Of a stretch of 64,000 nt of DNA, positions 4,073 through 46,239 are shown one piece after another. The stretch is from positions 580,456-644,455 of the forward strand of contig CBDEUH010000004.1 of NCBI GenBank assembly GCA_965243255.1, written 5' to 3'. Numbering within the stretch: the stretch's first letter is position 1; each line of letters begins with the position of its first letter. This DNA comes from Dehalococcoidia bacterium. GTDB lineage: Bacteria > Chloroflexota > Dehalococcoidia > Lucifugimonadales > UBA3495. The notes beneath the pieces were generated by a model, which did not search any database, was not told the DNA's origin, and worked only from the letters and a program-made list of their open reading frames with translations. The translations under genes and the position numbers were made by a program.

Positions 4073-5701
4073 TTAGCGTCGGATTTGAATGCCGGCGGCT
4101 TCCCGGTCGAAGCAACCGGCGATCAGGTCTTCCCGCTCCTGGCGCAGCACGTCCTTGCGCACGCGCAGGCTGGGAGTGCGGGGGAGTTCGTCGCGGATTT
4201 CAATATAACGCGGGACTTTGAAATACGCCAGATTTTCGGCGCACCAGTGGACCACTTCCTCGGGCTGCACCGACTCGCCGGGCCGGGGTGTGATGTAAGC
4301 CTTCACTTCGTCCTCGCCCAGGTCGGAGGGGACGGCGATGATGGCGCAGTCCAGGACGCGCTCGTGGCGCTTGATGACGTCTTCCACCTCCTGGGAGGAG
4401 ATGTTTTCGCCCCGGCGGCGGATGACGTCCTTCTTGCGGTCAACGAAGTAGAGGTAGTCGTCATCGTCCTGCCAGCCCAGGTCGCCGGTGAAGAGCCAGC
4501 CGTCGCGCAGGGAGGCGTTGGTTTCGGTTTCGTTGCGCCAGTAGCCGGCCATGGTGGCCGGATTGCGGATAGTGATTTCGCCGGGCGTGCCGTTGGCCAC
4601 GGGGCCGCCGGCGTCGTCCACGATGCGGACGGTGTTCTCAAAGGCCGGGTCGGGATGGCGGCGAGGTTGGCCGGAGGAATTGGGACGGCGCTGGCCGCGG
4701 ATGGCCTCGATGGTTCCGTAGCAGGTCTCGGTCATGCCGAACCCGACGATGATGTCGGTGCCGAAACGCTGCTCAAAGTCGGCGAGGAACTCCGGTGAGA
4801 AGGCCGGCGAGCCGTAGAATAGGCGGACGGTGTTGTCGGCGTCGTTGGGCTGGCGGTCGTTCTTGGCCAGGACGGGCATCATCATGCCGATGAAGTTGAC
4901 CACGGTGGCCCGGGCGTCGCGCACCTGCTGCCAGAAGCGGGAGGCGCTGAATCGGTCCTGGACGATGAGGGTGGCGCCGGAGGCCAGGGTGCCCATGGTG
5001 CTGTAGTACTGGGCGTTGGCGTGGAAGTAGGGCAGGCAGGTGAAAAAGCGGTCGTCGGCGGTGGCCTGGGTCCACAGGGCGAACCCCTGGCCGGCGGACA
5101 CGTACATCTGGTGGGTAACCTGCACTCCCTTGGGGTTGCCGGTGGTGCCGGAGGTGTACTGGAGCATGGAGATGTCGGTGGGGGCCACGGCGGGCAGTTC
5201 CGTAAGCTCGGGCGAACCGTCCAGCAATTGGCCGTAGTCCTGCCAGCCGGCGGCGGGGCTGCCGCCCACGGCCAGGCGATGCTGTACGCAGTCTGCGATG
5301 TCGGCGGCCTGGGTCGCAATGTCGGCCAGGCTGTCGTGGGCGACCAGTGCGGATGCCTCGGCGTTGTTGAGGATGTAGGCCATTTCGTCGCGGCGGTAGG
5401 CGGTGTTGATGGTAACGGCGATGCCGCCGATGAGGGACAGGCCGAACCAGGTGTAGAGCACTTCGGGCACGTTGGGCAGGAACAGGCAGACCCGGTCGCC
5501 GTGGCCGATGCCCAGGCTGCGGAACATACTGGAGGCCTGTCGGCAGCGCCGCATGAAGTCGCCGTAGGTAATCTGCCGGCCGTCAATCTCCACGAACACC
5601 TTGTCAGGATGGACGGCGGTGACGATCTCCAGGAACTCGCCCAGGGATTTCTCCCAGGAGCGGCGGCCGGGCAGGGGCTCCAGGCCGAGAACGGTAGTCA
5701 T
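4073..5701 (-). CDS. AMP-dependent acyl-CoA synthetase/ligase
   Basis: 542 aa. Has the AMP-binding signature YTSGTTGNPKGV and a C-terminal adenylate-forming domain. Confidence 0.9.
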   Translation of the reverse strand: MTTVLGLEPLPGRRSWEKSLGEFLEIVTAVHPDKVFVEIDGRQITYGDFMRRCRQASSMFRSLGIGHGDRVCLFLPNVPEVLYTWFGLSLIGGIAVTINTAYRRDEMAYILNNAEASALVAHDSLADIATQAADIADCVQHRLAVGGSPAAGWQDYGQLLDGSPELTELPAVAPTDISMLQYTSGTTGNPKGVQVTHQMYVSAGQGFALWTQATADDRFFTCLPYFHANAQYYSTMGTLASGATLIVQDRFSASRFWQQVRDARATVVNFIGMMMPVLAKNDRQPNDADNTVRLFYGSPAFSPEFLADFEQRFGTDIIVGFGMTETCYGTIEAIRGQRRPNSSGQPRRHPDPAFENTVRIVDDAGGPVANGTPGEITIRNPATMAGYWRNETETNASLRDGWLFTGDLGWQDDDDYLYFVDRKKDVIRRRGENISSQEVEDVIKRHERVLDCAIIAVPSDLGEDEVKAYITPRPGESVQPEEVVHWCAENLAYFKVPRYIEIRDELPRTPSLRVRKDVLRQEREDLIAGCFDREAAGIQIRR

Positions 5702-5881
5702 GGTGATAGCTCTATGAATTCCCGCCCCGTGCCAAGTATGGGATGAAGTGTTTGCGCGGGAATGGCGGGAGGTGTCATTGCAGGTGAATTCACGCTATCA
5801 CGCAGGCCGGGCGGGGTCAATAGCGGCGAACCGTGGCGGCGCTGGGAGAGAGGCGGGGGTGGGGTTTGGGGGTTTTCGGTT

Positions 5882-6258
5882 TCATTGGGGTTGGCTCCTT
5901 TAGCTTGGTTTGGGGATTTCGGTTTTCGGTAAGTTGGGCAGCCTGCTTGAGGTAAGGTGGTCGTTGTCAGCCCCACGGCCGGGGGAGTTACGCAAGGGGG
6001 TTTATACCCTCCGAGTGGGTGAGCCTAATGAGAGCGTCCAGTTCAGAGGTAGCCACCGTTAAGATTCGCACGGGTCATTTGTTAGCCGTACACGACGCAG
6101 TGGGTAGCGCGCTGGAACAAGCGTGGTCTTGCGATTTGGAGATGCTGACGGTTGTGGCCGTTGACGACCGAACTAACCGGGTGTGGTAGGTTCTTGATTT
6201 ACCTCGTTGCAGGCTGTGGGATACCGATGGTTTCGCTAGCGATGGGGCCATTATGAAC
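5882..6258 (+). repeat. conserved non-coding module, copy A (blocks 1-4 plus ~64-nt units)
   Basis: Blocks are shared with 43970-44415: a 37-nt identical run 5949-5985, a 31-nt identical run 6143-6173, and a 63-nt block 6196-6258 with 3 mismatches. Contains the palindrome TCGCTAGCGA at 6233-6242. Confidence 0.85.
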
Positions 6259-6383
6259 AGGTGTTCGGTAATATGTCAAGCGTTAGGTGTCACTGGATTG
6301 CCAGAATGAACGAGGTGGCGGGTTTTGGCTTGACGTGGCTGGCGTGTCATCGGCAGAATGGAAGCGGGACAATCCACAGGAGT

Positions 6384-6617
6384 ATGGCAATGGCTAGGAC
6401 TAAAGAGCAATTTTCCGGTCAGGCCTCGCCGGAGTTGCTGGCGGCAATGCGGAGCATCGCACGGGCAAAGGGCTGTGATTTTGAGGCTGCGCTGGAGGAG
6501 GCGATGCAGGAGTACGTCGCGAGCCAGAGCGCAGAGAAGGTACAGCCGGAAGCGGTAGCCCACTTCCGGGCGAGCCTGGAGCGCAACCGACGCCTCTACG
6601 AGTTGCTGGCCCAATGA
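6384..6617 (+). CDS. ribbon-helix-helix type antitoxin (partner of Doc)
   Basis: 77 aa from the ATG at 6384, with GGAG just upstream (ATG at 6390 is an alternative). Has an RHH-like N-terminus. Its stop overlaps the Doc start by 4 nt (ATGA). Confidence 0.7.
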   Translation: MAMARTKEQFSGQASPELLAAMRSIARAKGCDFEAALEEAMQEYVASQSAEKVQPEAVAHFRASLERNRRLYELLAQ

Positions 6618-6991
6618 CCCGTAATTTCCTTACAACCGAAACGGTCATCGTCATCCATGACATTTTGATTGAAGAGACCGGCGGGGCTGCCGGATTGCGG
6701 GACGCGGGAGCATTGGAATCAGCCATCATGCGACCGCAGATTGGGTACTACGACGGCATCATTGAGGAAGCAGCCGCACTCATGGAGAGCCTGGCCATTA
6801 ACCATCCCTTTGTGGACGGGAACAAACGTATTGCCCTGGCCGCTGCCGATGCGTTCCTGCGGATGAACGGGAAGTACATCGATTGCGACAGCGAGGAAGC
6901 TTACGAGCACTTCATGCATCTGTTTGATACCAACACGTTCCGGCTCGCTGAGCTGGCGGCGTGGCTCGAGGAAGCAGTGAAACCGCTCTGA
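6614..6991 (+). CDS. doc: Doc (death-on-curing) / Fic-domain toxin
   Basis: 125 aa. Carries the Fic/Doc motif HPFVDGNKR. Confidence 0.9.
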   Translation: MTRNFLTTETVIVIHDILIEETGGAAGLRDAGALESAIMRPQIGYYDGIIEEAAALMESLAINHPFVDGNKRIALAAADAFLRMNGKYIDCDSEEAYEHFMHLFDTNTFRLAELAAWLEEAVKPL

Positions 6992-7133
6992 TGAACGGCG
7001 TGGCTAGCGCAACTGCGCTAAAGTCGGGGCATGATTGCACCGGCAACCAGTAGGTGCTATGCGCGTACTGTCTCCTGGTGAAGGGGAATGCCTGGTGGAG
7101 AGGGGATTGGTGGCTTAAATTGGAGGGAAAACT

Positions 7134-8114
7134 ATGAAATCGCGAGCAAGGGAGCTTACGGACCGCGCTACATCTGCAATGTCCGCTGCAATTGAACTAT
7201 ACAACAAACCAGGATTTCCCTATCGCAGCGAATCCTTTGCGATCCTTGCTGTCAACGCATGGGAGCTATTGTTGAAAGCCAAGTGGTTGACCATTCATCA
7301 AAATAAAGAAGGTAGTTTGTACGTCCACGACTATCGAAGGAAAGCCAATGGGGAGTGGGGTCAGAAAAGTTATATTAGGAAGACTCGCTCCGGTGCGTCA
7401 TATACGCATGGCTTGGACTATTTGTCTAGCCAACTGGTTCATCGGGGCCTTCTCCATCCCTCTGCACATCGGAACATCGAGGTGATGCTGGAATTTCGTG
7501 ATTGCGCTGTTCACTTTTATACCCAATCACCGGAATTCAGAACACGTCTGCACGAGCTTGGCGCAGCCTGTGTCAAGAATTTCGCCACCGCTATGTATGA
7601 TTGGTTCGGAAGAGAACTATCCGAACTTGATCTGCACCTGATGCCGTTGGCATTCATTGACTTGCCCGCGAACGTGCATGGATCTTTGCTCAACGCCACA
7701 GAGAAGAATTTCTTGAAATTTTTGGAGGAGAAAGATGAAGATGAGGCTGATCAAATCTCTCCTTATACCGTCACCGTAAGTGTTAAAGTTAGCTTTGTGA
7801 AGTCCAAAGATAGCGATGCAATACTGGCTAGGGTTACGAATGATCCATCCGCAACGCCGATACGTCTCACGGACGATGAGTTCACAGCGAGATATCCATG
7901 GACCTACCTAACTTTAACGGGCAGGTGCGCACAACGTTACACCGACTTTAAACAGAACGCGGATTATCATTGCGTTCGCAAGCAATTGGAGCAAATACCA
8001 GGCTTTGCTAAGACGCGCTTCCTCAATCCAAACAACCCCGATAGTGCCAAGACAACCCGTTACAACCCAAGCATCCTGCAGGAATTTGACAAGCACTATA
8101 CGAAGAAAACGTAG
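7134..8114 (+). CDS. DUF3644-like protein
   Basis: 326 aa. N-terminal AIELYNKPGFPYRSESF...NAWELLLKAKW matches my recollection of the DUF3644 signature. GC is visibly lower than in the flanks. Confidence 0.65.
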   Translation: MKSRARELTDRATSAMSAAIELYNKPGFPYRSESFAILAVNAWELLLKAKWLTIHQNKEGSLYVHDYRRKANGEWGQKSYIRKTRSGASYTHGLDYLSSQLVHRGLLHPSAHRNIEVMLEFRDCAVHFYTQSPEFRTRLHELGAACVKNFATAMYDWFGRELSELDLHLMPLAFIDLPANVHGSLLNATEKNFLKFLEEKDEDEADQISPYTVTVSVKVSFVKSKDSDAILARVTNDPSATPIRLTDDEFTARYPWTYLTLTGRCAQRYTDFKQNADYHCVRKQLEQIPGFAKTRFLNPNNPDSAKTTRYNPSILQEFDKHYTKKT

Positions 8115-19031: not shown

Positions 19032-19781
19032 ATGATGCAGCAACGCGCCGCGCCGTCGGCAGCAGTGCCCGAGAACTGGCACACTGCTTTGGCCATCGTG
19101 GCCCATCCCGACGATTTGGAGTACGGGGCGGCCAGCGCCATCGCCAAGTGGACGGCCCAGGGCAAGACCGTGACCTATGTTATGGTGAGCAAAGGGGAGG
19201 CCGGCATCGACCGTATGGACCCGTCGGTGGTGGGGCCGTTGCGGATGCAGGAGGAAATCAACAGCGCGCGGGTCGTGGGCGTGGACACGGTGGAGTTTCT
19301 GGACTACACCGACGGCGTCATCGAGTACGGATTGCCCCTGCGTCGGGACTTGAGCCGGGAGATACGCCGCCATCGTCCCGACGTGATTATTACCATCAAC
19401 CACCACTTGCAGTTTTTCAGCGGGCATCTGAACATGGCGGACCACCGCTGGGTTGGCCTGGCGGTGTTCGACGCGGCCCGGGATGCCGGCAACCGCTGGA
19501 TTTTCCCGGAACTGCTGGCCGAGGGTTACGAACCCTGGAACCACGTGCGCTTCGTGGCGGTTTTCGGCTCCACGGAACCGACCCACGCCGTGGACGTGTC
19601 CGGGCACTGGGAGACGGGGCTGGCCTCGCTGCGCGAGCACAAGGCTTATTTGGAAAACCTGGGCGACGTGGGCAACAGTCCCTTTGAGTTTTTGACGGCC
19701 CACGCTCGCGAGGCCGGGGCGGCATTCGGCTGCGATTACGCTTCCTATGCGGAGCTCGTGCTGATCAACGAGGCGTTTTAG
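19032..19781 (+). CDS. PIG-L/LmbE family deacetylase
   Basis: AIVAHPDDLEYG motif (AHPDD). Confidence 0.85.
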   Translation: MMQQRAAPSAAVPENWHTALAIVAHPDDLEYGAASAIAKWTAQGKTVTYVMVSKGEAGIDRMDPSVVGPLRMQEEINSARVVGVDTVEFLDYTDGVIEYGLPLRRDLSREIRRHRPDVIITINHHLQFFSGHLNMADHRWVGLAVFDAARDAGNRWIFPELLAEGYEPWNHVRFVAVFGSTEPTHAVDVSGHWETGLASLREHKAYLENLGDVGNSPFEFLTAHAREAGAAFGCDYASYAELVLINEAF

Positions 19782-21268: not shown

Positions 21269-22417
21269 TTAGAAGGGCAGGCCCTCGCCGATGTCGTTCT
21301 CGGTGCGGAAGGGGCCCCACTCCCGGGGGATGTTGAGGAGACGGTCTTCCAGGTCGTCAACGCTGTTCTGGCCGCAGTAGGCCATGGCCCGGTCGAACTC
21401 CTCCCGGAGTAGTTCCAGCATGTGGTGTACGCCCTCGGCGCCGTTGACGGCCAGGCCCCAGTAGAGGGGACGGCCCACGGCCACGGCGGTTGCGCCCAGG
21501 GCCAGGGCCTTGAGCACGTCGCTGCCGCGGCGGACGCCGGAGTCAACGTACACCTCCACCTTGCCGCCGGTGGCGGCGACGATTTCCGGTACAACCTCAA
21601 TGCTGGACATGGTGGTGTCCATCCGCCGCCCGCCGTGGGTGGAGACCAGGACGGCGTTGGCGCCGTGCTCGACGGCCAGGCGCGCGTCCTCGGCGGTGCG
21701 CACGCCCTTGAGGACCAGGGGCAGTCCGGTGAGGCTGCGCAGCCAGTCCAGTTCCCGCCAGGTCAGCGGCGGCGGCAACAGGACGTGCCCGTAGGTGGTT
21801 GGGACGCTTTCGCCGGCCTCGGCCAGCCGTCTCTGATATTCACGGAAGTTGCCCAGCTCGCCGGGCCGCACAAAGCGGTTGCGGATGTCGCGCTCCTTGG
21901 GCGTGGGAATCGGGGCGTCCACCGTGAGGACGATAGCCTTGTAGCCGGCAGCCTCGGCCCGTTTGACCAGATTTTCGGTGTGGTCATAGCCGCGGTGGGA
22001 GAGTTGCATCCACAGCGGGCCGGTGGCGGCGTCGGCGATCTCCTCCAGGCTGCAATGGGACGAGGTGCTGCACATCATCAGGGTGTTGGACATGCCGGCC
22101 CCGCGGGCGGTGGCGCATTCGGCATCGGGGTGAGCGATCCCGTGGCCGTCGGTGGGAGAGATCATCACCGGCAAGCTGATGTCCTGCCCCAGCACCGTGG
22201 TGGCGATTTTGCGCTCCGTGATGTTGCGCATGAAGCGAGGCCGCAGGGTGATGGCTTCAAAGGCGGAGCGATTGCGGGCGGTGGTGATTTCGTCCATCGC
22301 GCCGCCTTCGATGAACTCCCAATTGTTGTGGGAGAGCATCGGCTTGGCGCGGGACTCGTAATCGTAGAGGCTGATAGGTTCCAGTCGCAAAAAAATATCA
22401 TCGGCCACTTGAGGCAA
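21269..22417 (-). CDS. FMN-dependent alpha-hydroxy-acid oxidase/dehydrogenase (LldD/glycolate oxidase family), paralog 1
   Basis: STHGGRRMD and the FMN-binding C-terminus. The true start may be the internal TTG at ~22390, by alignment with paralog 2. Confidence 0.85.
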   Translation of the reverse strand: MPQVADDIFLRLEPISLYDYESRAKPMLSHNNWEFIEGGAMDEITTARNRSAFEAITLRPRFMRNITERKIATTVLGQDISLPVMISPTDGHGIAHPDAECATARGAGMSNTLMMCSTSSHCSLEEIADAATGPLWMQLSHRGYDHTENLVKRAEAAGYKAIVLTVDAPIPTPKERDIRNRFVRPGELGNFREYQRRLAEAGESVPTTYGHVLLPPPLTWRELDWLRSLTGLPLVLKGVRTAEDARLAVEHGANAVLVSTHGGRRMDTTMSSIEVVPEIVAATGGKVEVYVDSGVRRGSDVLKALALGATAVAVGRPLYWGLAVNGAEGVHHMLELLREEFDRAMAYCGQNSVDDLEDRLLNIPREWGPFRTENDIGEGLPF

Positions 22418-22451: not shown

Positions 22452-23573
22452 CTAGAAGGGCAAATGCTCGGCGATGTCGTTCTCGGTGCGGAAGGGGCCC
22501 CACTCCCGGGGGATGTTGAGGAGACGGTCTTCCAGGTCGTCCACGCTGTTCTGGCCGCAGTAGGCCATGGCGCGGTTGAACTCCTCGCGCAGCAGTTCCA
22601 GCATGTGATGTACGCCCTCGGCGCCGTTGACGGCCAGGCCCCAGTAGAGGGGGCGCCCCACGGCCACGGCGGTTGCGCCCAGGGCCAGGGCCTTCAGCAC
22701 GTCGCTGCCGCGGCGGACGCCGGAGTCAACGTACACCTCCGCCTTGCCACCGGTGGCGGCAACGATCTCGGGGACCATTTCGATGCTGGACATGGTGCTG
22801 TCCAGTTGGCGGCCGCCGTGGGTGGAGACCAGGATGCCGTTTACGCCGTGCTCGACAGCCAGGCGCGCGTCCTCGGCGACGCGGACGCCTTTCAGCACGA
22901 TGGGGAGACTGGTGAGACTGCGCAGCCAGTCCAGCTCCTGCCAGGTCAGCGGCGGCGACTGGGGCATTTCCCAAGTGGGAGATTCGTCGGTGCCGGTGAC
23001 TTCCGAGAGGCGGTCCTGCTGCTCGCGGAAGTTGCCAAGGTCGCCGGGACGCTGGTAGCGGTTGCGGACATCCCGTTCCTTGGGGCTGGGCGCCGGCGTG
23101 TCGATGGTGAGGACGATGGCCCGGTAGCCGGCGGCCTCGGCGCGCTTGACCAGGTTCTCGGTGAGATCGTAGCCGCGGTGGTAGAGCTGGAACCACAGCG
23201 GGCCGGTGGCGGCGTCGGAGATTTCTTCCAGGCTGCAGTTGGACGAGGTGCTGCACATCATCAGGGTGTTGGACATGCCGGCGCCGCGGGCGGTGGCGCA
23301 CTCGGCTTCGGGGTGGGCGTTGCCGTGGCCGCCGGTGGGAGCAATCATTACCGGGAAGCTGATGTCCTGTCCCAGGACGGTGGTAGAGACTTTGCGCTCG
23401 GTGGTATCGCGCATAAAACGCGGACGCAGCGTCAAGGACTCGAAAGCTGAGCGGTTGCGGGCCGTCGTAATTTCGTCCATGGAACCCGCTTCGATGAACT
23501 CCCAGTTGTTATGTGGGAGGATCTGTTTGGCCCTGGCCTCGTAGTCGTATAGATTGATGGGGTCCAGTCTCAT
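22452..23573 (-). CDS. FMN-dependent alpha-hydroxy-acid oxidase/dehydrogenase, paralog 2
   Basis: STHGGRQLD. The 3' ~300 nt are near-identical to paralog 1. Confidence 0.85.
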   Translation of the reverse strand: MRLDPINLYDYEARAKQILPHNNWEFIEAGSMDEITTARNRSAFESLTLRPRFMRDTTERKVSTTVLGQDISFPVMIAPTGGHGNAHPEAECATARGAGMSNTLMMCSTSSNCSLEEISDAATGPLWFQLYHRGYDLTENLVKRAEAAGYRAIVLTIDTPAPSPKERDVRNRYQRPGDLGNFREQQDRLSEVTGTDESPTWEMPQSPPLTWQELDWLRSLTSLPIVLKGVRVAEDARLAVEHGVNGILVSTHGGRQLDSTMSSIEMVPEIVAATGGKAEVYVDSGVRRGSDVLKALALGATAVAVGRPLYWGLAVNGAEGVHHMLELLREEFNRAMAYCGQNSVDDLEDRLLNIPREWGPFRTENDIAEHLPF

Positions 23574-31462: not shown

Positions 31463-33748
31463 ATGACTACCAACGGCACTTCCGGCGCGTTGCGCGACAT
31501 TCACGTGGTGGAGTTCGGCCAGTACGTGCCCGGCCCAATGCTGGGGATGCTGCTGGCCGACCAGGGCGCCCACGTCATCAAGGTGGAGCGGCCCGCCGGC
31601 GACCCGGCCCGCTCCGAACCGGCCTTCGCCACCTGGAACCGGGGCAAGCGCTCGGTGACGCTGGACCTGAAAACCGACGCCGGACGGGAAACCGCCCGCC
31701 GCCTGGCCGCCAATGCCGACGTAGTGATTGAAAACTTCCGGCCCGGCGTGGCGCAGCGCCTGGGCATCGGCTATGACGAGCTCAGCGCCGGCCATCCCAG
31801 CCTGATCTACTGCTCCCTGCCCGGCTACGGCGAAGAGCATCCCAGCCGCAACGAGCCGGGCTGGGACCCGGTCATCAGCGCGGAGACGGGTTTCTACCCT
31901 GAGACCGGTGAGAGCAATGGCGACCCGCTGTTCACGCCGCTGCCCATCGCCAGCACCTTCGCCGCCCTGCTGGGCTCGGTGTCGGTGGCCATGGCCATCA
32001 ACGCCCGGGACAAGACCGGCAAGGGACAGCGTGTTGAGGTGCCGTTGCACTCCGCGATGTTCACCGCCATGGGCAGCCGCATCATCAAGTTCAACGGCTA
32101 CGAATACGTTGACCAGTTCGACTTTCCCCGCACCGTGATGTCGCACCCCTACCAGTGCGCCGACGGACGCTGGGTGTATCACCACGGGATGTTCGAGCGG
32201 TTCGCCCGCCAGACGCTGACGGCGGCGGGCAAGACCGAGTGGATTGAGGAAGCAACGTCCCTGTTCGGTCGTCCCGTTGACGACGATACGCTGGCCTTCT
32301 GGCAGACCCGTTTCGCCGAAATGTTCAGGGAACGCATGGCCTGGCAGTGGGAAGCGGACATTAACGCGCAAGGCGGCGCCTGCACCGTCTGCAAGACCGT
32401 TGACGAGTGGCTGGTACACGACCACGCCGTATCCGCCAAAATGGTTGAACTAGTGGACGACGCCGAGCGCGGCACGATGAAGCAGCCCGGCGTCCAGGTG
32501 CGCTTGCGGGGCACGCCGGGAGCGATACAATCCCGCGCCCCCAGGCTGGGCGAGCACACCGACCAGGTCCTGGCCGAGCTGGACAGCGCACCGGCGCGTC
32601 CGGCCGGCAGCAACGGTAGCAACGGCGACGTTATGTCCGCCTTGCAAGGCGTGCGCGTCCTCGACTTGTGCATCATCCTGGCCGGCCCCACCTGCGGCCG
32701 CACCCTGGGCGAGTTCGGCGCCGACGTCATCAAGATTGACGACCCGACGCGCACCCTGGACCCGGTGGGATACATCGACGTGAACCGGGGCAAGCGCAGC
32801 ATCATGCTGAACCTCAAAACCGACGAAGGCAAGGCCGTTTTCTGGAAGCTGGTGGAATCCGCCGACGTTATCGTGGAAAACAACCGCAAGTCCGCCGTGG
32901 AACGGCTGGGCCTGGGCTACGAGGCCATCAAGAAGGTCAAGCCCGACATCGTGTACGCCTCGCTCAACGCTTTCGGCTACGATGGTCCGTGGTCGGAGCG
33001 GGCCGGCTGGGAGCAGTTGGCCCAGGGCACCAGCGGGATGCAGGTGCGGCGCGGCGGCCGGGACGGCAAGCCCATGCTCGCGCCCTACGCCGTCAACGAC
33101 TATGGCACCGGTTTGATGGGAGCCTACGCCGTGGCGTTGGCGCTGCACGAGCGCAGCCGCACCGGACAGGGTCAATCGGTGGACAGCGGGCTGGCCTTGA
33201 CCGCTGGCCTGTTGCAGTCGCCGTACTTCCTGGATTACGACGGCTATCAGCGGGAAGACATCGAAGGCGTGGACGCCAGAGGGTATTCAACCCGTTCCAG
33301 TTTGTACCAGGCCGCCGACGGCTGGCTGTACGTGCACTGTCCCGATACGGCGACCTATGGGGCGTTCCTGGCCGCGCTGAACTTCCGGGACATTCACGAG
33401 GACGGCGACGCCATCGCCGAGGCCATCGCCGGCAACACCATCGAGCACTGGATGCAGACGCTGCGTCCGCTGGGCGTGTCGGTGTCGCCCAACCTGACCA
33501 TGGAGGACTACCGCAACGACCCGGTGGTGCGCAACGCTGGTTTCATCGTCACCCGTGAGCATACCGTCTGGGGCAGCGTTGACCATTCGGGCACCACGGC
33601 GCGCCTGTCGGCCACCCCGCCGCGCCTGGGCAATCCCACCCCCTACTTCGGCCAGCACACCGACGAGATTCTGACGGAGGCCGGCTACTCGGCCGGCGAA
33701 ATCGCCGCGCTGAAAGCATCAGGAGCCGCGGTAGCGCCGGGTCCATAA
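31463..33748 (+). CDS. tandem-duplicated family III CoA-transferase (CaiB/BaiF)
   Basis: 761 aa with two CaiB-like halves. Each half opens with V.EFGQ..PGP...LAD.GA.VIKVE / V.DL...LAGP......EFGADVIKID. Confidence 0.85.
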   Translation: MTTNGTSGALRDIHVVEFGQYVPGPMLGMLLADQGAHVIKVERPAGDPARSEPAFATWNRGKRSVTLDLKTDAGRETARRLAANADVVIENFRPGVAQRLGIGYDELSAGHPSLIYCSLPGYGEEHPSRNEPGWDPVISAETGFYPETGESNGDPLFTPLPIASTFAALLGSVSVAMAINARDKTGKGQRVEVPLHSAMFTAMGSRIIKFNGYEYVDQFDFPRTVMSHPYQCADGRWVYHHGMFERFARQTLTAAGKTEWIEEATSLFGRPVDDDTLAFWQTRFAEMFRERMAWQWEADINAQGGACTVCKTVDEWLVHDHAVSAKMVELVDDAERGTMKQPGVQVRLRGTPGAIQSRAPRLGEHTDQVLAELDSAPARPAGSNGSNGDVMSALQGVRVLDLCIILAGPTCGRTLGEFGADVIKIDDPTRTLDPVGYIDVNRGKRSIMLNLKTDEGKAVFWKLVESADVIVENNRKSAVERLGLGYEAIKKVKPDIVYASLNAFGYDGPWSERAGWEQLAQGTSGMQVRRGGRDGKPMLAPYAVNDYGTGLMGAYAVALALHERSRTGQGQSVDSGLALTAGLLQSPYFLDYDGYQREDIEGVDARGYSTRSSLYQAADGWLYVHCPDTATYGAFLAALNFRDIHEDGDAIAEAIAGNTIEHWMQTLRPLGVSVSPNLTMEDYRNDPVVRNAGFIVTREHTVWGSVDHSGTTARLSATPPRLGNPTPYFGQHTDEILTEAGYSAGEIAALKASGAAVAPGP

Positions 33749-33773: not shown

Positions 33774-33807
33774 GCAGGGGCGGATGATTATTCGCCCCTG
33801 CGTTTTT
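33774..33807 (+). terminator. intrinsic terminator (GCAGGGGCG-loop-CGCCCCTGC + GTTTTT)
   Basis: 9-bp GC stem with a 10-nt loop and a T-run, 26 nt after the CoA-transferase stop. The core resembles the palindrome at 36137. Confidence 0.75.
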
Positions 33808-33899
33808 GCCGTCCTTCCGATCCGCCGCGCGGATGCAATCCAATCCTGCCCGTGCTACACTGGCGCCAGTTCGTCCGTCCCGCCGGCGGGAGGTGTGCA

Positions 33900-36110
33900 A
33901 TGCTGCGTATTTACAATACCCTGACCAAGTCCGTCGAGGAAATCCGGCCGCTGACCCCCGGCAAGGTGTCCATGTACACCTGCGGGCCCACGGTGTACCG
34001 CTATGCCCACATCGGCAACCTGCGCACCTACCTCATGGCCGACTGGATTCGCCGCATCCTGGAAGTCGACGGCAACGAGGTCTATCACATCAAGAACATC
34101 ACCGACGTGGGCCATATGCGGCAGGAACTGGCCGAGGCCGGCGGCGACAAGATGATTATGGCCGCGCTGGCGGAGGGGAAGTCGCTACAGGAAATCGGCG
34201 AGTTCTACGCCGGCGTCTTCTGGCAGGACGAGGAGCGCATCAACATCCAGGCGGCCCACGTCTTCCCCTGGGCCTCGCACCACATCCCCGAAATGCTGGA
34301 CATGGTGGGCACGCTGATGAACAACGGCGCCGCCTACGAGGCCGGCGGCAACATCTACTTTGACGTGAACAGCTACCCCCAATACGGCAAGCTGTCGCGC
34401 AACTTCGGCGGCGACCTGCTGGAAGGCGTCCGCGCGGAGGCCGACCCGCTGAAACACGATCCCAGGGACTTCACACTCTGGAAAGCCGCCGAACCCGGCA
34501 GGGACGTGAAGTGGGATAGCCCATGGGGCGAGGGATTCCCCGGCTGGCACATCGAATGTTCAGCCATGGCCCACAAGTACCTGGGCGAGCGCTTTGACAT
34601 CCACACCGGCGGCGTGGACAACGTGTTCCCCCATCACGAGGACGAAATCGCCCAGAGCGAAGGCGCATTTGGACAGCAGCACGTTAATTACTGGGTACAC
34701 GGTCAGCACCTGCTGGCGGACGGCGCCAAGATGGCCAAGTCGGCCGGCAACGTGTTCTTGATTGAAGACCTGTCGTCCCGGGGATTTGACCCGCTGGCCT
34801 TCCGCTACCTGTGCATGACGGTGCGTTACCGGCACCGGATGAACTTCACCTTCACCTCACTGCGGGCCGCGGAGAAAGCCTTGACCGGCCTGCGCAACCG
34901 CATCTGGGTATGGCGCAGCGTCTCCGGCAACGGTGCGCAGCCCCACGCCGCCAGCAGCGAGGCGGAAGCTTGGCGGCGCCGGTTCTGGGACGCCGTGCAC
35001 AACGACCTTGACCTGCCCACCGGCCTGGCTATCACCTGGGAAATGGTTCGCTCGGAGCTTGCGCCCGCGGACAAGCTGGACCTGCTGCTGGACTTTGACC
35101 GGGTGTTTGGCCTTGACCTGGACCGGGTGCCAGCCCGCTACGAGATCGGTTCGGCTAACCACGCGGCCATTGAACAGCGCGCCGAGTTGCGCCAGCAAGC
35201 CTCCTACACCGACGCCGACGCAGTGCGGGCGGAAGTGGTCGCCAACGGGATGGTGGTAGAGGACTTTGGTGATGCCACCCGGGTGCGCCCGCAGACGCCC
35301 CTGGAATTGCAGGAGGCCAGGTGGTCGTCCGTGTCGGCCTCCCGGGAAGTGCCGTCCCTGCTGGACGAGCCGGACCTGTACGACTTCACCTTTCTCATCA
35401 ACGCCTACGACTACGTGGACGACGTGCGCCGCTGCGTGGAAGCAGTCTTGCGCCATACCGCCGGCGCGTCGGCCGAGGTCGTCGTGGTGGACAACGGCTC
35501 CACCGATGGCACCGCCGAATACCTGGAATCGGCCCAGGCGGAACACGACAACGTGCGGGTGATTCACTGCGACCACGTGGTCGGCGACGCCGCCGGCAAG
35601 AACATCGGCCTCAAGCAGGCCCGGGGTCGCTACGTCGTGCTGCTGGATGCGTCCACCGAGATTGTCGGCGACGTTATGTCTGCCGTTGCCGAGCAGTTGT
35701 CCGATGAGAGCGTGGGCGTCTTCGGCCCCTACGGCCTCACCACCGACGATATGCAGCACTTCCACGAGGAGGTTGACTTCGGCGACGCCGACGCGATGCA
35801 GGCGTACTGCATGGCCTTCCGCCGCGCCGCCCTGCCCTCGGTGGGTCTGATGCACGAGTCCTTCCGGTTCTATCGCAACCTGGACATCGACTACTGCTTC
35901 CAGTTCAAGAACGCCGGCTACCGGGTCGTCTGCGACAGCAGCCTGCCCATGGTGCGCCACGAGCATCGCCAGTGGGAGGAGCTGGACGAAAACCAGCGCG
36001 ACGAGCTCAGCCGCAAGAACTTCGGCCGCTTCCTCAAGCGCTGGGGCAACCGCCCCGACCTTCTCATCAACCCCTCAGCTCGCGGCTTCGATACCGGCTT
36101 CCGCCACTGA
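33900..36110 (+). CDS. cysS: cysteinyl-tRNA synthetase fused to a C-terminal GT2-type glycosyltransferase domain
   Basis: ATG at 33900 with GGGAGG upstream. Carries HIGN (HIGH) and KMAKS (KMSKS) motifs, a CysRS-like helical/anticodon region to ~aa 480, then FLINAYDY...VVVVDNGSTDGT...VVLLDAS (GT-A/GT2) in the same frame with no stop. Confidence 0.8.
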   Translation: MLRIYNTLTKSVEEIRPLTPGKVSMYTCGPTVYRYAHIGNLRTYLMADWIRRILEVDGNEVYHIKNITDVGHMRQELAEAGGDKMIMAALAEGKSLQEIGEFYAGVFWQDEERINIQAAHVFPWASHHIPEMLDMVGTLMNNGAAYEAGGNIYFDVNSYPQYGKLSRNFGGDLLEGVRAEADPLKHDPRDFTLWKAAEPGRDVKWDSPWGEGFPGWHIECSAMAHKYLGERFDIHTGGVDNVFPHHEDEIAQSEGAFGQQHVNYWVHGQHLLADGAKMAKSAGNVFLIEDLSSRGFDPLAFRYLCMTVRYRHRMNFTFTSLRAAEKALTGLRNRIWVWRSVSGNGAQPHAASSEAEAWRRRFWDAVHNDLDLPTGLAITWEMVRSELAPADKLDLLLDFDRVFGLDLDRVPARYEIGSANHAAIEQRAELRQQASYTDADAVRAEVVANGMVVEDFGDATRVRPQTPLELQEARWSSVSASREVPSLLDEPDLYDFTFLINAYDYVDDVRRCVEAVLRHTAGASAEVVVVDNGSTDGTAEYLESAQAEHDNVRVIHCDHVVGDAAGKNIGLKQARGRYVVLLDASTEIVGDVMSAVAEQLSDESVGVFGPYGLTTDDMQHFHEEVDFGDADAMQAYCMAFRRAALPSVGLMHESFRFYRNLDIDYCFQFKNAGYRVVCDSSLPMVRHEHRQWEELDENQRDELSRKNFGRFLKRWGNRPDLLINPSARGFDTGFRH

Positions 36111-36136: not shown

Positions 36137-36164
36137 GTAGGGGCGAATAATTATTCGCCCCTAC
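36137..36164. terminator. perfect 28-nt palindrome GTAGGGGCGAATAATTATTCGCCCCTAC between convergent genes
   Basis: Perfect inverted repeat. GAAAAC on the + strand gives a U-run for the minus-strand SDR gene; there is no T-run for the + strand gene. Confidence 0.65.
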
Positions 36165-43969: not shown

Positions 43970-44415
43970 TCATTGTGGTTGGCTCCTTTGGGGGTGTCAG
44001 AATCAGGATTCACGGGATTTTGGGATTTTCAGGATTTTGGGTAGCCTGCGAGAGGTAAGGTGGTCGTTGTCAGCCCCACGGCCGGGGGTTGGTTACGCAC
44101 TTCCACATAGGTGTTTTTGTGACGGCAGTCAGTTCTCCGCCAATGGCCGCAGTGGTATCGCGCCGTTGCCACTTCCGGTGTCTATGACGGTCATCTGTTA
44201 TCCGCCAATGGCAGCTGTGGCCGCACCGTTGTCACTTCCAGTGTTTGTGACGGGGATCTGTTATCCGTCAATGGCAGCTGTGACCGCACCGGCGTGCGTG
44301 ATTAGGATTTGCTGACGGTTGTGGCCGTTGACGACCGAACCGTGATGGTTCTGATTTACCTCGTTGCAGGCTGTGGGGTACCGATGATTTCGCTAGCGAT
44401 GGGGCTATTATGAAC
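43970..44415 (+). repeat. conserved non-coding module, copy B
   Basis: Same block order and orientation as 5882-6258: block 1 43970-43989, block 2 44037-44099, block 3 44310-44340, block 4 44353-44415. Palindrome TCGCTAGCGA at 44390-44399. Confidence 0.85.
44120..44312 (+). repeat. tandem array of three ~63-65-nt units (each starting TGACGG)
   Basis: Unit starts are at 44120, 44185 and 44248, and the next TGACGG at 44313 opens conserved block 3. Units 2 and 3 match at 39/43 over their first 43 nt. Confidence 0.85.
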
Positions 44416-44549
44416 GGACGTTCTACGGATTGTCAATAGGCTGGTGTCGGTGTCGGCAAGCAGGCTATGGCGCAAGCGCCGGCGTGGGTCTCCGTAAACT
44501 GGTATAGTTTGAAAGTGGATGTTCCAATCGAACCGGGAGGTCAGGGAAA

Positions 44550-44828
44550 ATGACGGCAAGCAAAAATTCCGACGGCCCGGCCCCGGAGGCGGTGAAGGTT
44601 TCGGCAATGCTGGACGAACACGCCAGGCTGGCAGCGCTTTTGAGAGCCGCTATCGCGGCGACGCCAGCGTGTGACGATGACTACTGGGTTGGCATGAGCG
44701 TTGACGAAGTTGTGGTACGTGGCGAATCGCCGGAGGCGGTGATGGCCGCTATTGACGACCGGGGAATGGGCGGCGGTACCGTGGTGCTGGAGTTCGTGAG
44801 CGCTGAACCCCAGGTAATCGTCCTGTGA
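44550..44828 (+). CDS. small protein, DUF5678-like C-terminus (putative partner of the protease)
   Basis: 92 aa. YWVGMSVDEVVVRGESPEAVMAAI...VVLEFV resembles my recollection of the DUF5678 pattern. GGGAGG RBS. Its stop overlaps the next start (GTGA). Confidence 0.6.
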   Translation: MTASKNSDGPAPEAVKVSAMLDEHARLAALLRAAIAATPACDDDYWVGMSVDEVVVRGESPEAVMAAIDDRGMGGGTVVLEFVSAEPQVIVL

Positions 44829-45253
44829 TAACTGGCGAGTTCAAGGGCATCCAGCCTTATGTTTCGGCCGTGGTCGGGATACCTCGTCTGGAAGTGTTCG
44901 GCACTGTCGCGTTCCTAGTGGATACCGGAGCCTCGGTGACGTGCCTTCACCCCAGGGATAGCATTGCGCTGCGACTGCCCTTCGACCGCCTGGAGCGCAG
45001 CGAGCACATCGTCGGCGTGGGCGGTAGATCGGAGCGGTTTCTGGAACGCGCCACACTAACGTTTTTGGACTCGGCCGGCGCGGTCACCTACGTGTACAAC
45101 GTGGACGTTCGCGTTGGCAAGCCGGAGCAGGTGGGCAGCGGACTGCCATCCGTGTTGGGGCAGGACGTGCTTGACCCTTGGCTAATGGTGCATGACCCGA
45201 CCAACCACCGGTTGCAGTTTGACGTGCGGAGCGCGGACGCGATATCCGGTTGA
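44825..45253 (+). CDS. retropepsin-like (clan AA) aspartic protease
   Basis: 142 aa. FLVDTGAS catalytic motif, a VGVGG flap-like segment and a C-terminal LGQDVL motif. The GTG start is translationally coupled. Confidence 0.8.
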   Translation: MITGEFKGIQPYVSAVVGIPRLEVFGTVAFLVDTGASVTCLHPRDSIALRLPFDRLERSEHIVGVGGRSERFLERATLTFLDSAGAVTYVYNVDVRVGKPEQVGSGLPSVLGQDVLDPWLMVHDPTNHRLQFDVRSADAISG

Positions 45254-45321
45254 ACAACCACACGCTAGCGAGATAAAGATGATGGTGGCTGTATCGCGCC
45301 GCTTGGGTCGGCGGTGGCCCG

Positions 45322-46239
45322 TCAGGCGTCGGTGAAGTAGTTTTCGTCAATTTCCTTGATTTCATAGACGGTTTTGGTAATAACGCCGACGCCGTACTCA
45401 ATCATCAGCCTGGCCAGCTTCGGGCCATCAATGAGCAGGATGGTTTTGTTGTTGCGGGCGGCGCCATCGGCAGTGCGCTTGGCGGCCTCGCTGAAGCGGG
45501 AAGTCGTGATGAATACGCCCCGGGTTGCGCCGTGTGGGTCAAGGCTACCGGAGAAGTTGCGAATTTCCGGCTCACCAACTTGGGCGGTGTCCCAACGTTT
45601 GGCCTGGACGTACACCTTTTCGAAACCCAGCCGGTCCTGGGTCACGATGCCATCGATGCCGCCATCGCCGCTGCGTCCTACTCTGCGGCCTCGGCCATAA
45701 CCAATCTTGACCAGCAGCTCGACGACCAAGTCCTCAAAGCGTTCGGGCGATACGGCTTTTACGGTTTCCAGCAGTTCGTCAGCCAGTTGAGCCCGCAATT
45801 GCTCATAGGTGACTTCAATCTGCTCGTCGGGCGAAATGTCGCCGGCAGTTGGAATCGTTGCGGCAAAGGACGGCGAATCCTCTGGTGATTCCTGTTCGGC
45901 CACCAACATATTGAGCTGGGCCGGGTCAAGGGCGTCGGGATGATCGTGGAGATACCGGCGGCCTTGTTCGGTGATTTGGTAGTGGCCTCGCTCCGGGCCT
46001 TGGGACGGGGCATCAAGCAATCCGCCGCGTTTCAGCAGGTGCATTGAGTAGCGTGTGTGCTTCTCAACCCGCAGGGCGCCGTGGGGAGTGCGTTCTTGCA
46101 GGTCGTCGTCGCTCAATGAGAGCAATGGTATCAATTCATCGAGGATATCCCGGTAGGATAACCGTGTTTCCACTTGGGCGGTAATTTCCAGAATTGGCCG
46201 CAGGAATGCCCGTTGGGGTGGTAGAGCCATTTTTTGCAA
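45322..46239 (-). CDS. mrr: Mrr-family restriction endonuclease (Mrr_N winged helix + Mrr_cat)
   Basis: FEDLVVELL..GYG, GDGGIDG and VYVQAKRW motifs. Start at 46239 or 46230. Confidence 0.85.
   Translation of the reverse strand: MQKMALPPQRAFLRPILEITAQVETRLSYRDILDELIPLLSLSDDDLQERTPHGALRVEKHTRYSMHLLKRGGLLDAPSQGPERGHYQITEQGRRYLHDHPDALDPAQLNMLVAEQESPEDSPSFAATIPTAGDISPDEQIEVTYEQLRAQLADELLETVKAVSPERFEDLVVELLVKIGYGRGRRVGRSGDGGIDGIVTQDRLGFEKVYVQAKRWDTAQVGEPEIRNFSGSLDPHGATRGVFITTSRFSEAAKRTADGAARNNKTILLIDGPKLARLMIEYGVGVITKTVYEIKEIDENYFTDA

Follow-up and report, generated by a model that had tools for sequence, protein, structure and literature searches.

A cysteinyl-tRNA synthetase fused to a GT-A glycosyltransferase domain in SAR202 bacteria, and the case for an enzyme guided by tRNA-Cys

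The sequence analysed here (hereafter the window) is a 64-kb stretch of contig CBDEUH010000004.1, numbered from its first letter, which comes from a marine or sponge-associated SAR202 bacterium and carries a gene, cysS-GT, encoding a cysteinyl-tRNA synthetase (CysRS) that continues in the same reading frame into a glycosyltransferase domain of the GT-A fold. A second, unrelated catalytic domain is a rare addition to an aminoacyl-tRNA synthetase (aaRS). Our comparisons indicate that the conserved unit within this protein consists of the anticodon-binding mini-domain of CysRS, a linker and the GT-A domain, such that the GT-A domain is evolutionarily tied to the anticodon reader and not to the synthetase as a whole. 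The occurrence of reader and enzyme alone in hundreds of genomes suggests an enzyme working on or with tRNA-Cys that has not been described before. The explanation we prefer, with a probability of roughly 0.45, is a tRNA-Cys-guided glycosyltransferase that, in SAR202, rides on the housekeeping CysRS.

The gene is a single open frame on the + strand, read directly from the window sequence without interruption from a GTG at 33852 or an ATG at 33900 to position 36110. Translation starts at the ATG at 33900, giving a product of 736 residues, because a GGAGG Shine-Dalgarno sequence stands before this codon at 33889–33893 and homologues of 732–736 aa begin MLR(I/L)YNTLT. CysRS occupies aa 1–463 and the GT-A (GT2) domain aa 496–722, with a 32-residue linker between them. 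Pfam places tRNA-synt_1e (PF01406) at aa 16–325 (1e-94), CysS_C (PF23493) at aa 417–463, a weak match of 18.6 bits that is below the gathering score of 23, and Glycos_transf_2 (PF00535) at aa 499–610 (3e-19; 69.9 bits against a gathering score of 23.3), while an AlphaFold2 (AF2) model of the full-length protein reaches a predicted local distance difference test (pLDDT) score of 83.1 and a predicted TM-score (pTM) of 0.82. An earlier note, made from the letters of this DNA and its open frames, had described a fusion of CysRS and GT2 in one 736-codon frame; profile and structure comparisons bear out both of its domain assignments, and the motifs it quoted (HIGN, KMAKS, VVVVDNGSTDGT and VVLLDAS) all lie where it put them. 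The CysRS region that it saw is likewise present, but ends at about aa 463 and not near aa 480.

Both domains recur, in proteins of equal length, in more than 120 clusters at 71–89% identity, many of them on contigs of 2–5 Mb, and a second deep SAR202 clade supplies 119 clusters at 54–59% identity to the window protein. The conservation figures given here are drawn from 120 fusion clusters in clade 1 and 119 in clade 2, 239 in total; every key residue is kept throughout these about 240 clusters, and full-length fusions are found down to 42–48% identity. We also surveyed one genome per GTDB species with a profile of the carboxy-terminal part, a relative of which is encoded by 491 species genomes, and locus figures refer to the best 80 of these 491. 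All 80 are Dehalococcoidia, SAR202 or Chloroflexota metagenome-assembled genomes (MAGs) and all carry SAR202 fusions; the closest is ‘Chloroflexi bacterium SB0666_bin_1’ (95%), and several appear from their isolate labels to be sponge-derived. In 79 of the 80 loci, closed chromosomes among them, the frame runs without interruption for 721 codons or more and is also open across the linker junction. In the remaining locus (L053, OZ253540.1) the gene is split at ~4775–6162 by a frameshift, with two tblastn segments in different frames, so that this SAR202 chromosome either was misassembled there or carries a pseudogene. The junction at ~35300–35400, which the earlier note had singled out as a place where a stop or frameshift might have been missed, is the linker; its identity within the clade is 78%, S486 and L488 are nearly invariant, and pLDDT is 82–94 in both AF2 models. 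The open frames, the many clusters of equal length and this conserved, confidently modelled linker together argue that the fusion is real; its conserved synteny and its persistence down to 42–48% identity argue that it is also old.

In public MAGs the fusion is abundant and is automatically annotated merely as cysteine--tRNA ligase. Full-text literature searches aimed at the CysRS–glycosyltransferase architecture, together with one paper on aaRS evolution, yielded no description of the fusion or of the free-standing unit introduced below, in keeping with the earlier note's view that the architecture is not a standard one; of its further suggestion, that the fusion might be widespread and already known as a plain CysRS, the first half is borne out and for the second we found no earlier description. 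A 355-aa fragment of the fusion (P0121, in the cluster of P0085) is deposited under the name of the sponge host, as ‘Glycosyltransferase GlyG [Geodia barretti]’, although the gene is that of a bacterial symbiont.

By sequence the amino-terminal part is of CysS type, not MshC type, and catalytically complete as judged by its residues. It passes the CysS equivalog model TIGR00435 (409.9 bits, cutoff 340) and fails the MshC equivalog model TIGR03447 (217.9 bits, cutoff 485.1), so that the choice between CysS and MshC, raised by the earlier note, is answered by hidden Markov model (HMM) in favour of CysS. Its best solved relatives are the CysRS structures 8QHP, 3SP1 and 1LI5 (269–322 bits, against 167 bits for MshC), and Foldseek superposes it on tRNA-bound E. 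coli CysRS (1U0B_B) with a TMt of 0.80 across 461 residues. Alignments of MshC to the window protein end at aa 377–381, whereas the window protein retains the helical region and the mini-domain. Both class I motifs are present, HIGN at aa 37–40, a variant shared with the Borrelia CysRS 3SP1, and KMAKS at aa 277–281. The zinc- and cysteine-site residues C28, C220, H245/H246, E249 and W216 align with E. coli and are invariant; their counterparts in E. coli CysRS, which we take to be the zinc- and cysteine-binding residues, are C28, C209, H234, E238 and W205. Since these residues and the remaining catalytic positions listed in Table 1 are 100% conserved in the 239 fusion clusters, the fusion is probably the working, essential CysRS of the cell. 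A 745-aa protein (P0147; L089, 8001–10238) was considered as a ‘pseudo-CysRS scaffold’ that would prove a role in tRNA binding only, and was dropped as a decaying duplicate: its HIGH, WH and KMSKS motifs are ruined, R659 and D662 of the GT-A domain are also lost, a dedicated search found it to be a singleton whose nearest relative is 55% identical, and its gene adjoins a DDE transposase and a serine recombinase.

The unit that recurs outside the fusion came to light in a search with aa 464–736, which returned, besides fusions and ordinary GT2 proteins, a class of ~300–345-aa proteins that align from query residue ~424 and comprise the CysRS C-terminal mini-domain, then the linker, then the same GT-A domain. 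A profile of these free-standing proteins (typically ~310 aa) gave 644 matches at ≤1e-10, most of which carry precomputed PF23493 and PF00535 assignments, PF23493 being present on about three quarters of the 120 matches listed. PF23493 exceeds its gathering score of 23 in P0397 (28.0 bits) and P0402 (31.3 bits), neither of which has a CysRS catalytic domain, and the free-standing units have no adenylation domain. Their sequences start 14–17 residues before the equivalent of E. coli R423, a point that coincides with the boundary of the C-terminal domain in CysRS, and across reader–GT-A units the linker measures about 30–37 aa. They come from Actinomycetota, Limnocylindria (other Chloroflexota) and further MAGs, under the name of glycosyltransferase or, wrongly, of cysteinyl-tRNA synthetase.

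We examined seven neighbourhood contexts, of which three were Limnocylindria-like, two actinobacterial, one from SAR202 and one from elsewhere. In these loci cysS never adjoins the free-standing gene, and the neighbours include no recurrent gene of the sugar-nucleotide, thiol, cysteine or tRNA-modification kind; for the family as a whole, no sugar or thiol gene flanks it in any lineage examined, a PIG-L gene 4–5 kb away in two actinobacterial loci excepted. Because they never stand beside cysS or within a sugar or thiol cluster, the free-standing genes are independent genes and not split fusions. Fused and free forms interleave in a rough neighbour-joining tree of the GT-A domain, a pattern suggesting that fusion or fission occurred more than once.

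The same loci offered several further observations. In both actinobacterial loci (L005, 13573–14295; L091, 4824–5549) the free-standing gene begins within the end of an alpha/beta-hydrolase gene that precedes it and is followed, all within 5 kb, by FtsH, an extracytoplasmic function (ECF) sigma/anti-sigma pair and the PIG-L deacetylase. In Limnocylindria-type loci a 98-aa open reading frame (ORF) with a single faint, sub-threshold Pfam match shares 4 nt with the 3' end of the free-standing gene (L007, 8918–9214; L008, 6226–6522; L092, 6915–7211), and an HTH_17 gene lies divergently upstream. No relevant tRNA gene was found near family members, the only one being a tRNA-Met in L005. A role as a defence system or toxin was also considered and set aside, as PADLOC gave no match for the fused protein, the standalone proteins or the 98-aa downstream ORF.

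Selection on the anticodon reader is strict. Aligned to 1LI5/1U0B, residues R427, R431, Y436, D440, R443, G450 and D455 of the window protein correspond to R423, R427, W432, D436, R439, G446 and D451 of E. coli CysRS. In analyses of 1U0B, G34 is hydrogen-bonded by R427 and D436 and stacks on W432, R423 takes part in a water network, and R439 is among the anticodon-pocket residues mutated for altered anticodon specificity (PMC12684709, PMC13449415). We restrict the G34-contact role to R423, R427, the aromatic residue at 432, D436 and R439, and list G446 and D451 for their conservation only. Conservation of all seven equivalents is 100% in each of the three sets, 126 free-standing, 120 clade-1 and 119 clade-2 proteins (239 fused in total), the stacking position 432 being W, F or Y; the window's CysS_C copy, though below cutoff, retains every contact residue. 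The mini-domain overall, in contrast, is only about 50% conserved within clade 1. We take such strict invariance of the G34 contacts within an otherwise variable domain as strong evidence, at the level of sequence, for binding of the GCA anticodon of tRNA-Cys by the free-standing proteins.

The GT-A domain has the look of an active, if unusual, enzyme. An AF2 model of aa 410–736 has a pLDDT of 92.3 and a pTM of 0.83, and the top 50 Foldseek matches are all GT-A enzymes, with E values of about 1e-12 (WrtF, ppGalNAc-transferases, K4CP, TarP and 6P61 among them). Fourteen polar or glycine positions are invariant across the family: R511, G562, D583-x-S585-x-E587, G590, R642, Y658-R659, D662, H687-x-H689, S704 and N707. 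The motif VVVVDNGSTDGT lies at aa 527–538 and spans the nucleotide-binding loop D-x-G-S-x-D that follows strand 2 (D531-N-G-S-T-D536 in the window protein), a loop kept as DNGSxD in 117 of 120 clade-1 and 117 of 119 clade-2 fused clusters. VVLLDAS lies at aa 579–585, where D583-A-S585 aligns with DSD of K4CP and DAD of 6P61, so that the DXD metal/diphosphate motif is absent. Within clade 1 identity reaches 82% in this domain and 88% in the CysRS catalytic core, and for this reason we do not regard it as an inert passenger. One suggestion of the earlier note, a bona fide CysRS with an appended unrelated domain, thus holds for the CysRS, whereas the domain is conserved and tied to the mini-domain.

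The short C-terminal tail of the window protein is replaced in some relatives by long His-rich tails, for example HDHPRHVQGTHAHAP...HTHTHQHWPDHSHEHPHYH, which occur in fused proteins of 802–818 aa (P0162, P0183) and in free-standing ones (P0220, P0155, P0195, P0268). Such tails, with the invariant H-x-H and D-x-S-x-E, hint at a metal requirement unlike that of the usual DXD-Mn site.

Table 1. Features of the cysS-GT locus, in window positions
Feature	Position	Strand	Basis or remark
GC-rich palindromic hairpin (GGGGCGGATGATTATTCGCCCC)	33777..33798		between CoA-transferase stop and cysS start
Shine-Dalgarno sequence GGAGG	33889..33893	+	6 nt 5' of the ATG; read directly
Whole gene: CysRS, linker and GT-A domain	33900..36110	+	736 codons plus stop; Pfam, TIGR00435, homologues, AF2
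CysRS class I catalytic domain (aa 1–325): C28, H37-I-G-N40, W216-H217, C220, H245-H246, E249, K277-M-A-K-S281	33900..34874	+	PF01406, 1e-94
CysRS helical region (stem-contact / anticodon helical bundle; aa 326–416)	34875..35147	+	colinear with solved CysRS structures; helices 318–403 in the model
CysRS C-terminal anticodon-binding mini-domain (aa 417–463)	35148..35288	+	alignment to 1LI5/1U0B
Structured linker (aa 464–495), motif ...S.S.EVPS.LDEPD...	35289..35384	+	conservation and models
GT-A (GT2-like) domain (aa 496–722), with basic C-terminal helix 697–715	35385..36065	+	PF00535 3e-19, AF2, Foldseek
Variable C-terminal tail (aa 723–736, ...GFDTGFRH) and stop codon	36066..36110	+	low pLDDT
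Second hairpin copy, 13-bp stem	36140..36161		30 nt past the stop; shared with a convergent SDR gene

An appended GT-A domain that is bound to the anticodon reader, and occurs with it in free-standing form as well, is the pattern that a tRNA-specific modifying enzyme or a tRNA-dependent enzyme would be expected to show, and the most likely target of the GT-A enzyme is tRNA-Cys or something that tRNA-Cys presents. As we envisage it, the mini-domain would bind the GCA anticodon exactly as in CysRS, an expectation based on conservation and homology, and the bound reader would place the GT-A active site beside the anticodon stem-loop; the domain would then transfer a sugar from a nucleotide-sugar onto tRNA-Cys or Cys-tRNA-Cys, away from the buried bases G34–A36. 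In SAR202 the reaction would take place in cis, with the tRNA still on the synthetase, and in other lineages it would be carried out by the separate protein. The solitary position of the family genes, outside glycan clusters and as is typical of tRNA-modification genes, favours tRNA modification. More tentatively still, reader and GT-A domain could together be the first bacterial family of tRNA glycosyltransferases, adding a sugar to the anticodon stem-loop of tRNA-Cys or to the cysteinyl moiety of Cys-tRNA.

Several observations weigh against this proposal. The canonical DXD motif is D-x-S in every member, the serine being invariant and followed by the invariant E587. In most free-standing members A-N-A-P-x-F replaces DNGSxD, and as the uridine-binding Asp (D531) has there become Ala, these forms may use another donor or perform another chemistry. 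One divergent fusion (P0193) is without the mini-domain, and the acidity of the reader–GT-A units (pI about 5), taken as a charge test for RNA binding, either says nothing or counts slightly against it. Position 34 of tRNA-Cys is G and not queuosine, and we know of no glycosylated nucleoside in bacterial tRNA-Cys. Sugar transfer is itself a function that we infer from the domain architecture.

The strongest rival, which we consider rather unlikely, also sees a bona fide CysRS in the protein but has the GT-A domain glycosylate an acceptor other than RNA, be it a protein, a small molecule or a lipid, with tRNA-Cys serving as regulator or scaffold, as in a transferase coupled to cysteine or to charging status. 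The domain facts are equally compatible with it, the solved enzymes nearest to the domain have glycans, teichoic acid or peptides as acceptors, the proteins are acidic, and no sugar modification of bacterial tRNA is known to us. It leaves the strict invariance of the G34 contacts across the deeply diverged free-standing proteins unexplained unless tRNA binding is essential to function, and the loci examined hold no conserved partner, acceptor or transporter gene nearby.

That the GT-A domain is catalytically dead, and is a structural, oligomerisation or tRNA-handling appendage like other non-catalytic additions to aaRS, we think improbable. Replacement of DXD by D-x-S and loss of the DNGS Asp from most free-standing forms would fit it, but the 14 invariant positions cluster on the catalytic elements of the GT-A fold (D583/S585/E587, Y658-R659, D662 and H687/H689) and the fused clusters hold on to DNGSxD in the proportions given above. 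What relaxation looks like is seen in the decaying P0147, where R659 and D662 were lost together with the CysRS motifs.

The earlier note had itself proposed an MshC-like cysteine ligase joined to a glycosyltransferase in the synthesis of a cysteinyl-glycoside thiol, linked to the PIG-L and GNAT genes of the window, and this now seems very improbable. CysRS paralogues can indeed ligate cysteine to amino-sugars, as MshC does, and a PIG-L gene lies 4–5 kb from the free-standing gene in the two actinobacterial loci. The window protein falls far short of the MshC cutoff while passing that for cysS, and keeps the full anticodon-binding apparatus, which MshC (~410 aa) lacks; the free-standing units are without an adenylation domain; and MshA and BshA are GT4 enzymes of GT-B fold, not GT2. 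Thiol genes are missing from the context. The PIG-L gene of the window (19032–19781) is about 14–15 kb away among unrelated TPR, TenA and hydrolase genes; its score of 64 bits is far below the BshB1 cutoff (182.5), and when PIG-L, GNAT and neighbouring ORFs were scanned none reached the BshB, MshB or Mca cutoff. Neither the SAR202 relative L001 nor the free-standing loci L006, L007, L090 and L092 have a PIG-L close to the gene; the actinobacterial PIG-L was accordingly rejected as a partner and attributed to lineage synteny, being confined to two related loci. An assembly or sequencing artefact joining two genes, finally, has nothing in its favour beyond the frameshift in L053 and can be dismissed on the 79 open species genomes, the ~240 clusters of equal length and the linker.

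The order CoA-transferase III, cysS-GT, short-chain dehydrogenase/reductase (SDR; not always present), MeaB, Band7 and NfeD is widely kept, and this synteny indicates vertical inheritance of the cysS-GT locus. The 761-aa product of the upstream gene (31463–33748) carries two CoA-transferase family III domains in tandem; in L001 this region is called as three shorter CoA_transf_3 ORFs of 195, 164 and 306 aa. A 22-nt palindrome (GGGGCGRATRATTATTCGCCCC) has exactly two copies in the window, flanking cysS-GT, where none is expected by chance, and recurs at equal relative positions in eight related SAR202 loci (L011, L013, L031–L033, L039, L041 and L044). It is probably a lineage-specific terminator or an element of the repetitive extragenic palindromic (REP) kind, and the downstream copy is probably a bidirectional terminator. 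Elsewhere in the window, two tandem paralogous genes on the minus strand (21269–22417 and 22452–23573) encode FMN-dependent alpha-hydroxy-acid dehydrogenases, LldD- or MftD-like and below all equivalog cutoffs, and the G+C content drops to 0.53 at 6001–8000 and 0.59 at 44001–46000, against the usual ~0.61–0.67; these stretches could be islands, RNA or intergenic regions.

If the proposed guidance by tRNA-Cys is confirmed, tRNA-modifying enzymes would gain a new class, and with it would come either a modified nucleoside not described so far or a novel role for Cys-tRNA; the unit would also provide a clear case of modular reuse of an aaRS recognition domain and, in SAR202, would unite charging and modification on one enzyme. 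Were the acceptor not RNA, the protein would still be a tRNA-Cys-gated glycosyltransferase, likewise undescribed; to our knowledge neither a sugar modification of bacterial tRNA nor an enzyme of this build has been reported.

Among known systems, canonical CysRS (E. coli CysS, 1LI5/1U0B) is colinear with aa 1–463 of the window protein, has the same domains and matches its set of G34 contacts, with Y436 in place of W432; the closest subgroup is the Borrelia type (PRK14536/3SP1). The window protein adds a conserved extension of 273 residues, linker and GT-A domain, after the mini-domain, and we know of no characterised CysRS that does so. MshC, the cysteine:GlcN-Ins ligase of mycothiol synthesis, has a homologous class I core (167 bits to 3C8Z/8HFM) but is without the anticodon-binding domains that the window protein keeps, and the window locus is without mycothiol gene context. 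With GT2/GT-A enzymes such as the WrtF fucosyltransferase (9OM*), E. coli K4 chondroitin polymerase (2Z86), TarP (6H1J), the ppGalNAc-transferases and a Leptospira glycosyltransferase (6P61), the family has in common the GT-A fold, PF00535, a DNGSxD-type loop in the fused forms and an Asp in the usual region of the catalytic base (D662). It differs from them in the invariant D-x-S-x-E, the H-x-H after the last strand and the basic helix ERxRLSKRNFYRFL, and in being tethered to a reader of the tRNA anticodon and standing, in the loci examined, outside glycan gene clusters.

A precedent in function is provided by the animal enzymes QTGAL (B3GNTL1) and QTMAN (GTDC1), sugar transferases that act on the anticodon loop of specific tRNAs (PMC11755703). 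These differ in being eukaryotic and in having as acceptor queuosine-34 of tRNA-Tyr or tRNA-Asp, whereas tRNA-Cys has G34. B3GNTL1 is filed in family GT2. The pair are the only tRNA glycosyltransferases known to us, and we know of no report of an aaRS-derived reader domain in them. GluQRS (YadB), whose gene gluQ finds mention in PMC10690763, is a GluRS paralogue that glutamylates the queuosine of tRNA-Asp, and is likewise a piece of an aaRS reused for tRNA modification rather than charging, but by the opposite logic: there the catalytic domain was kept and the anticodon-binding domain dropped, whereas in the present family the reader appears to have been kept and joined to an unrelated catalytic fold.

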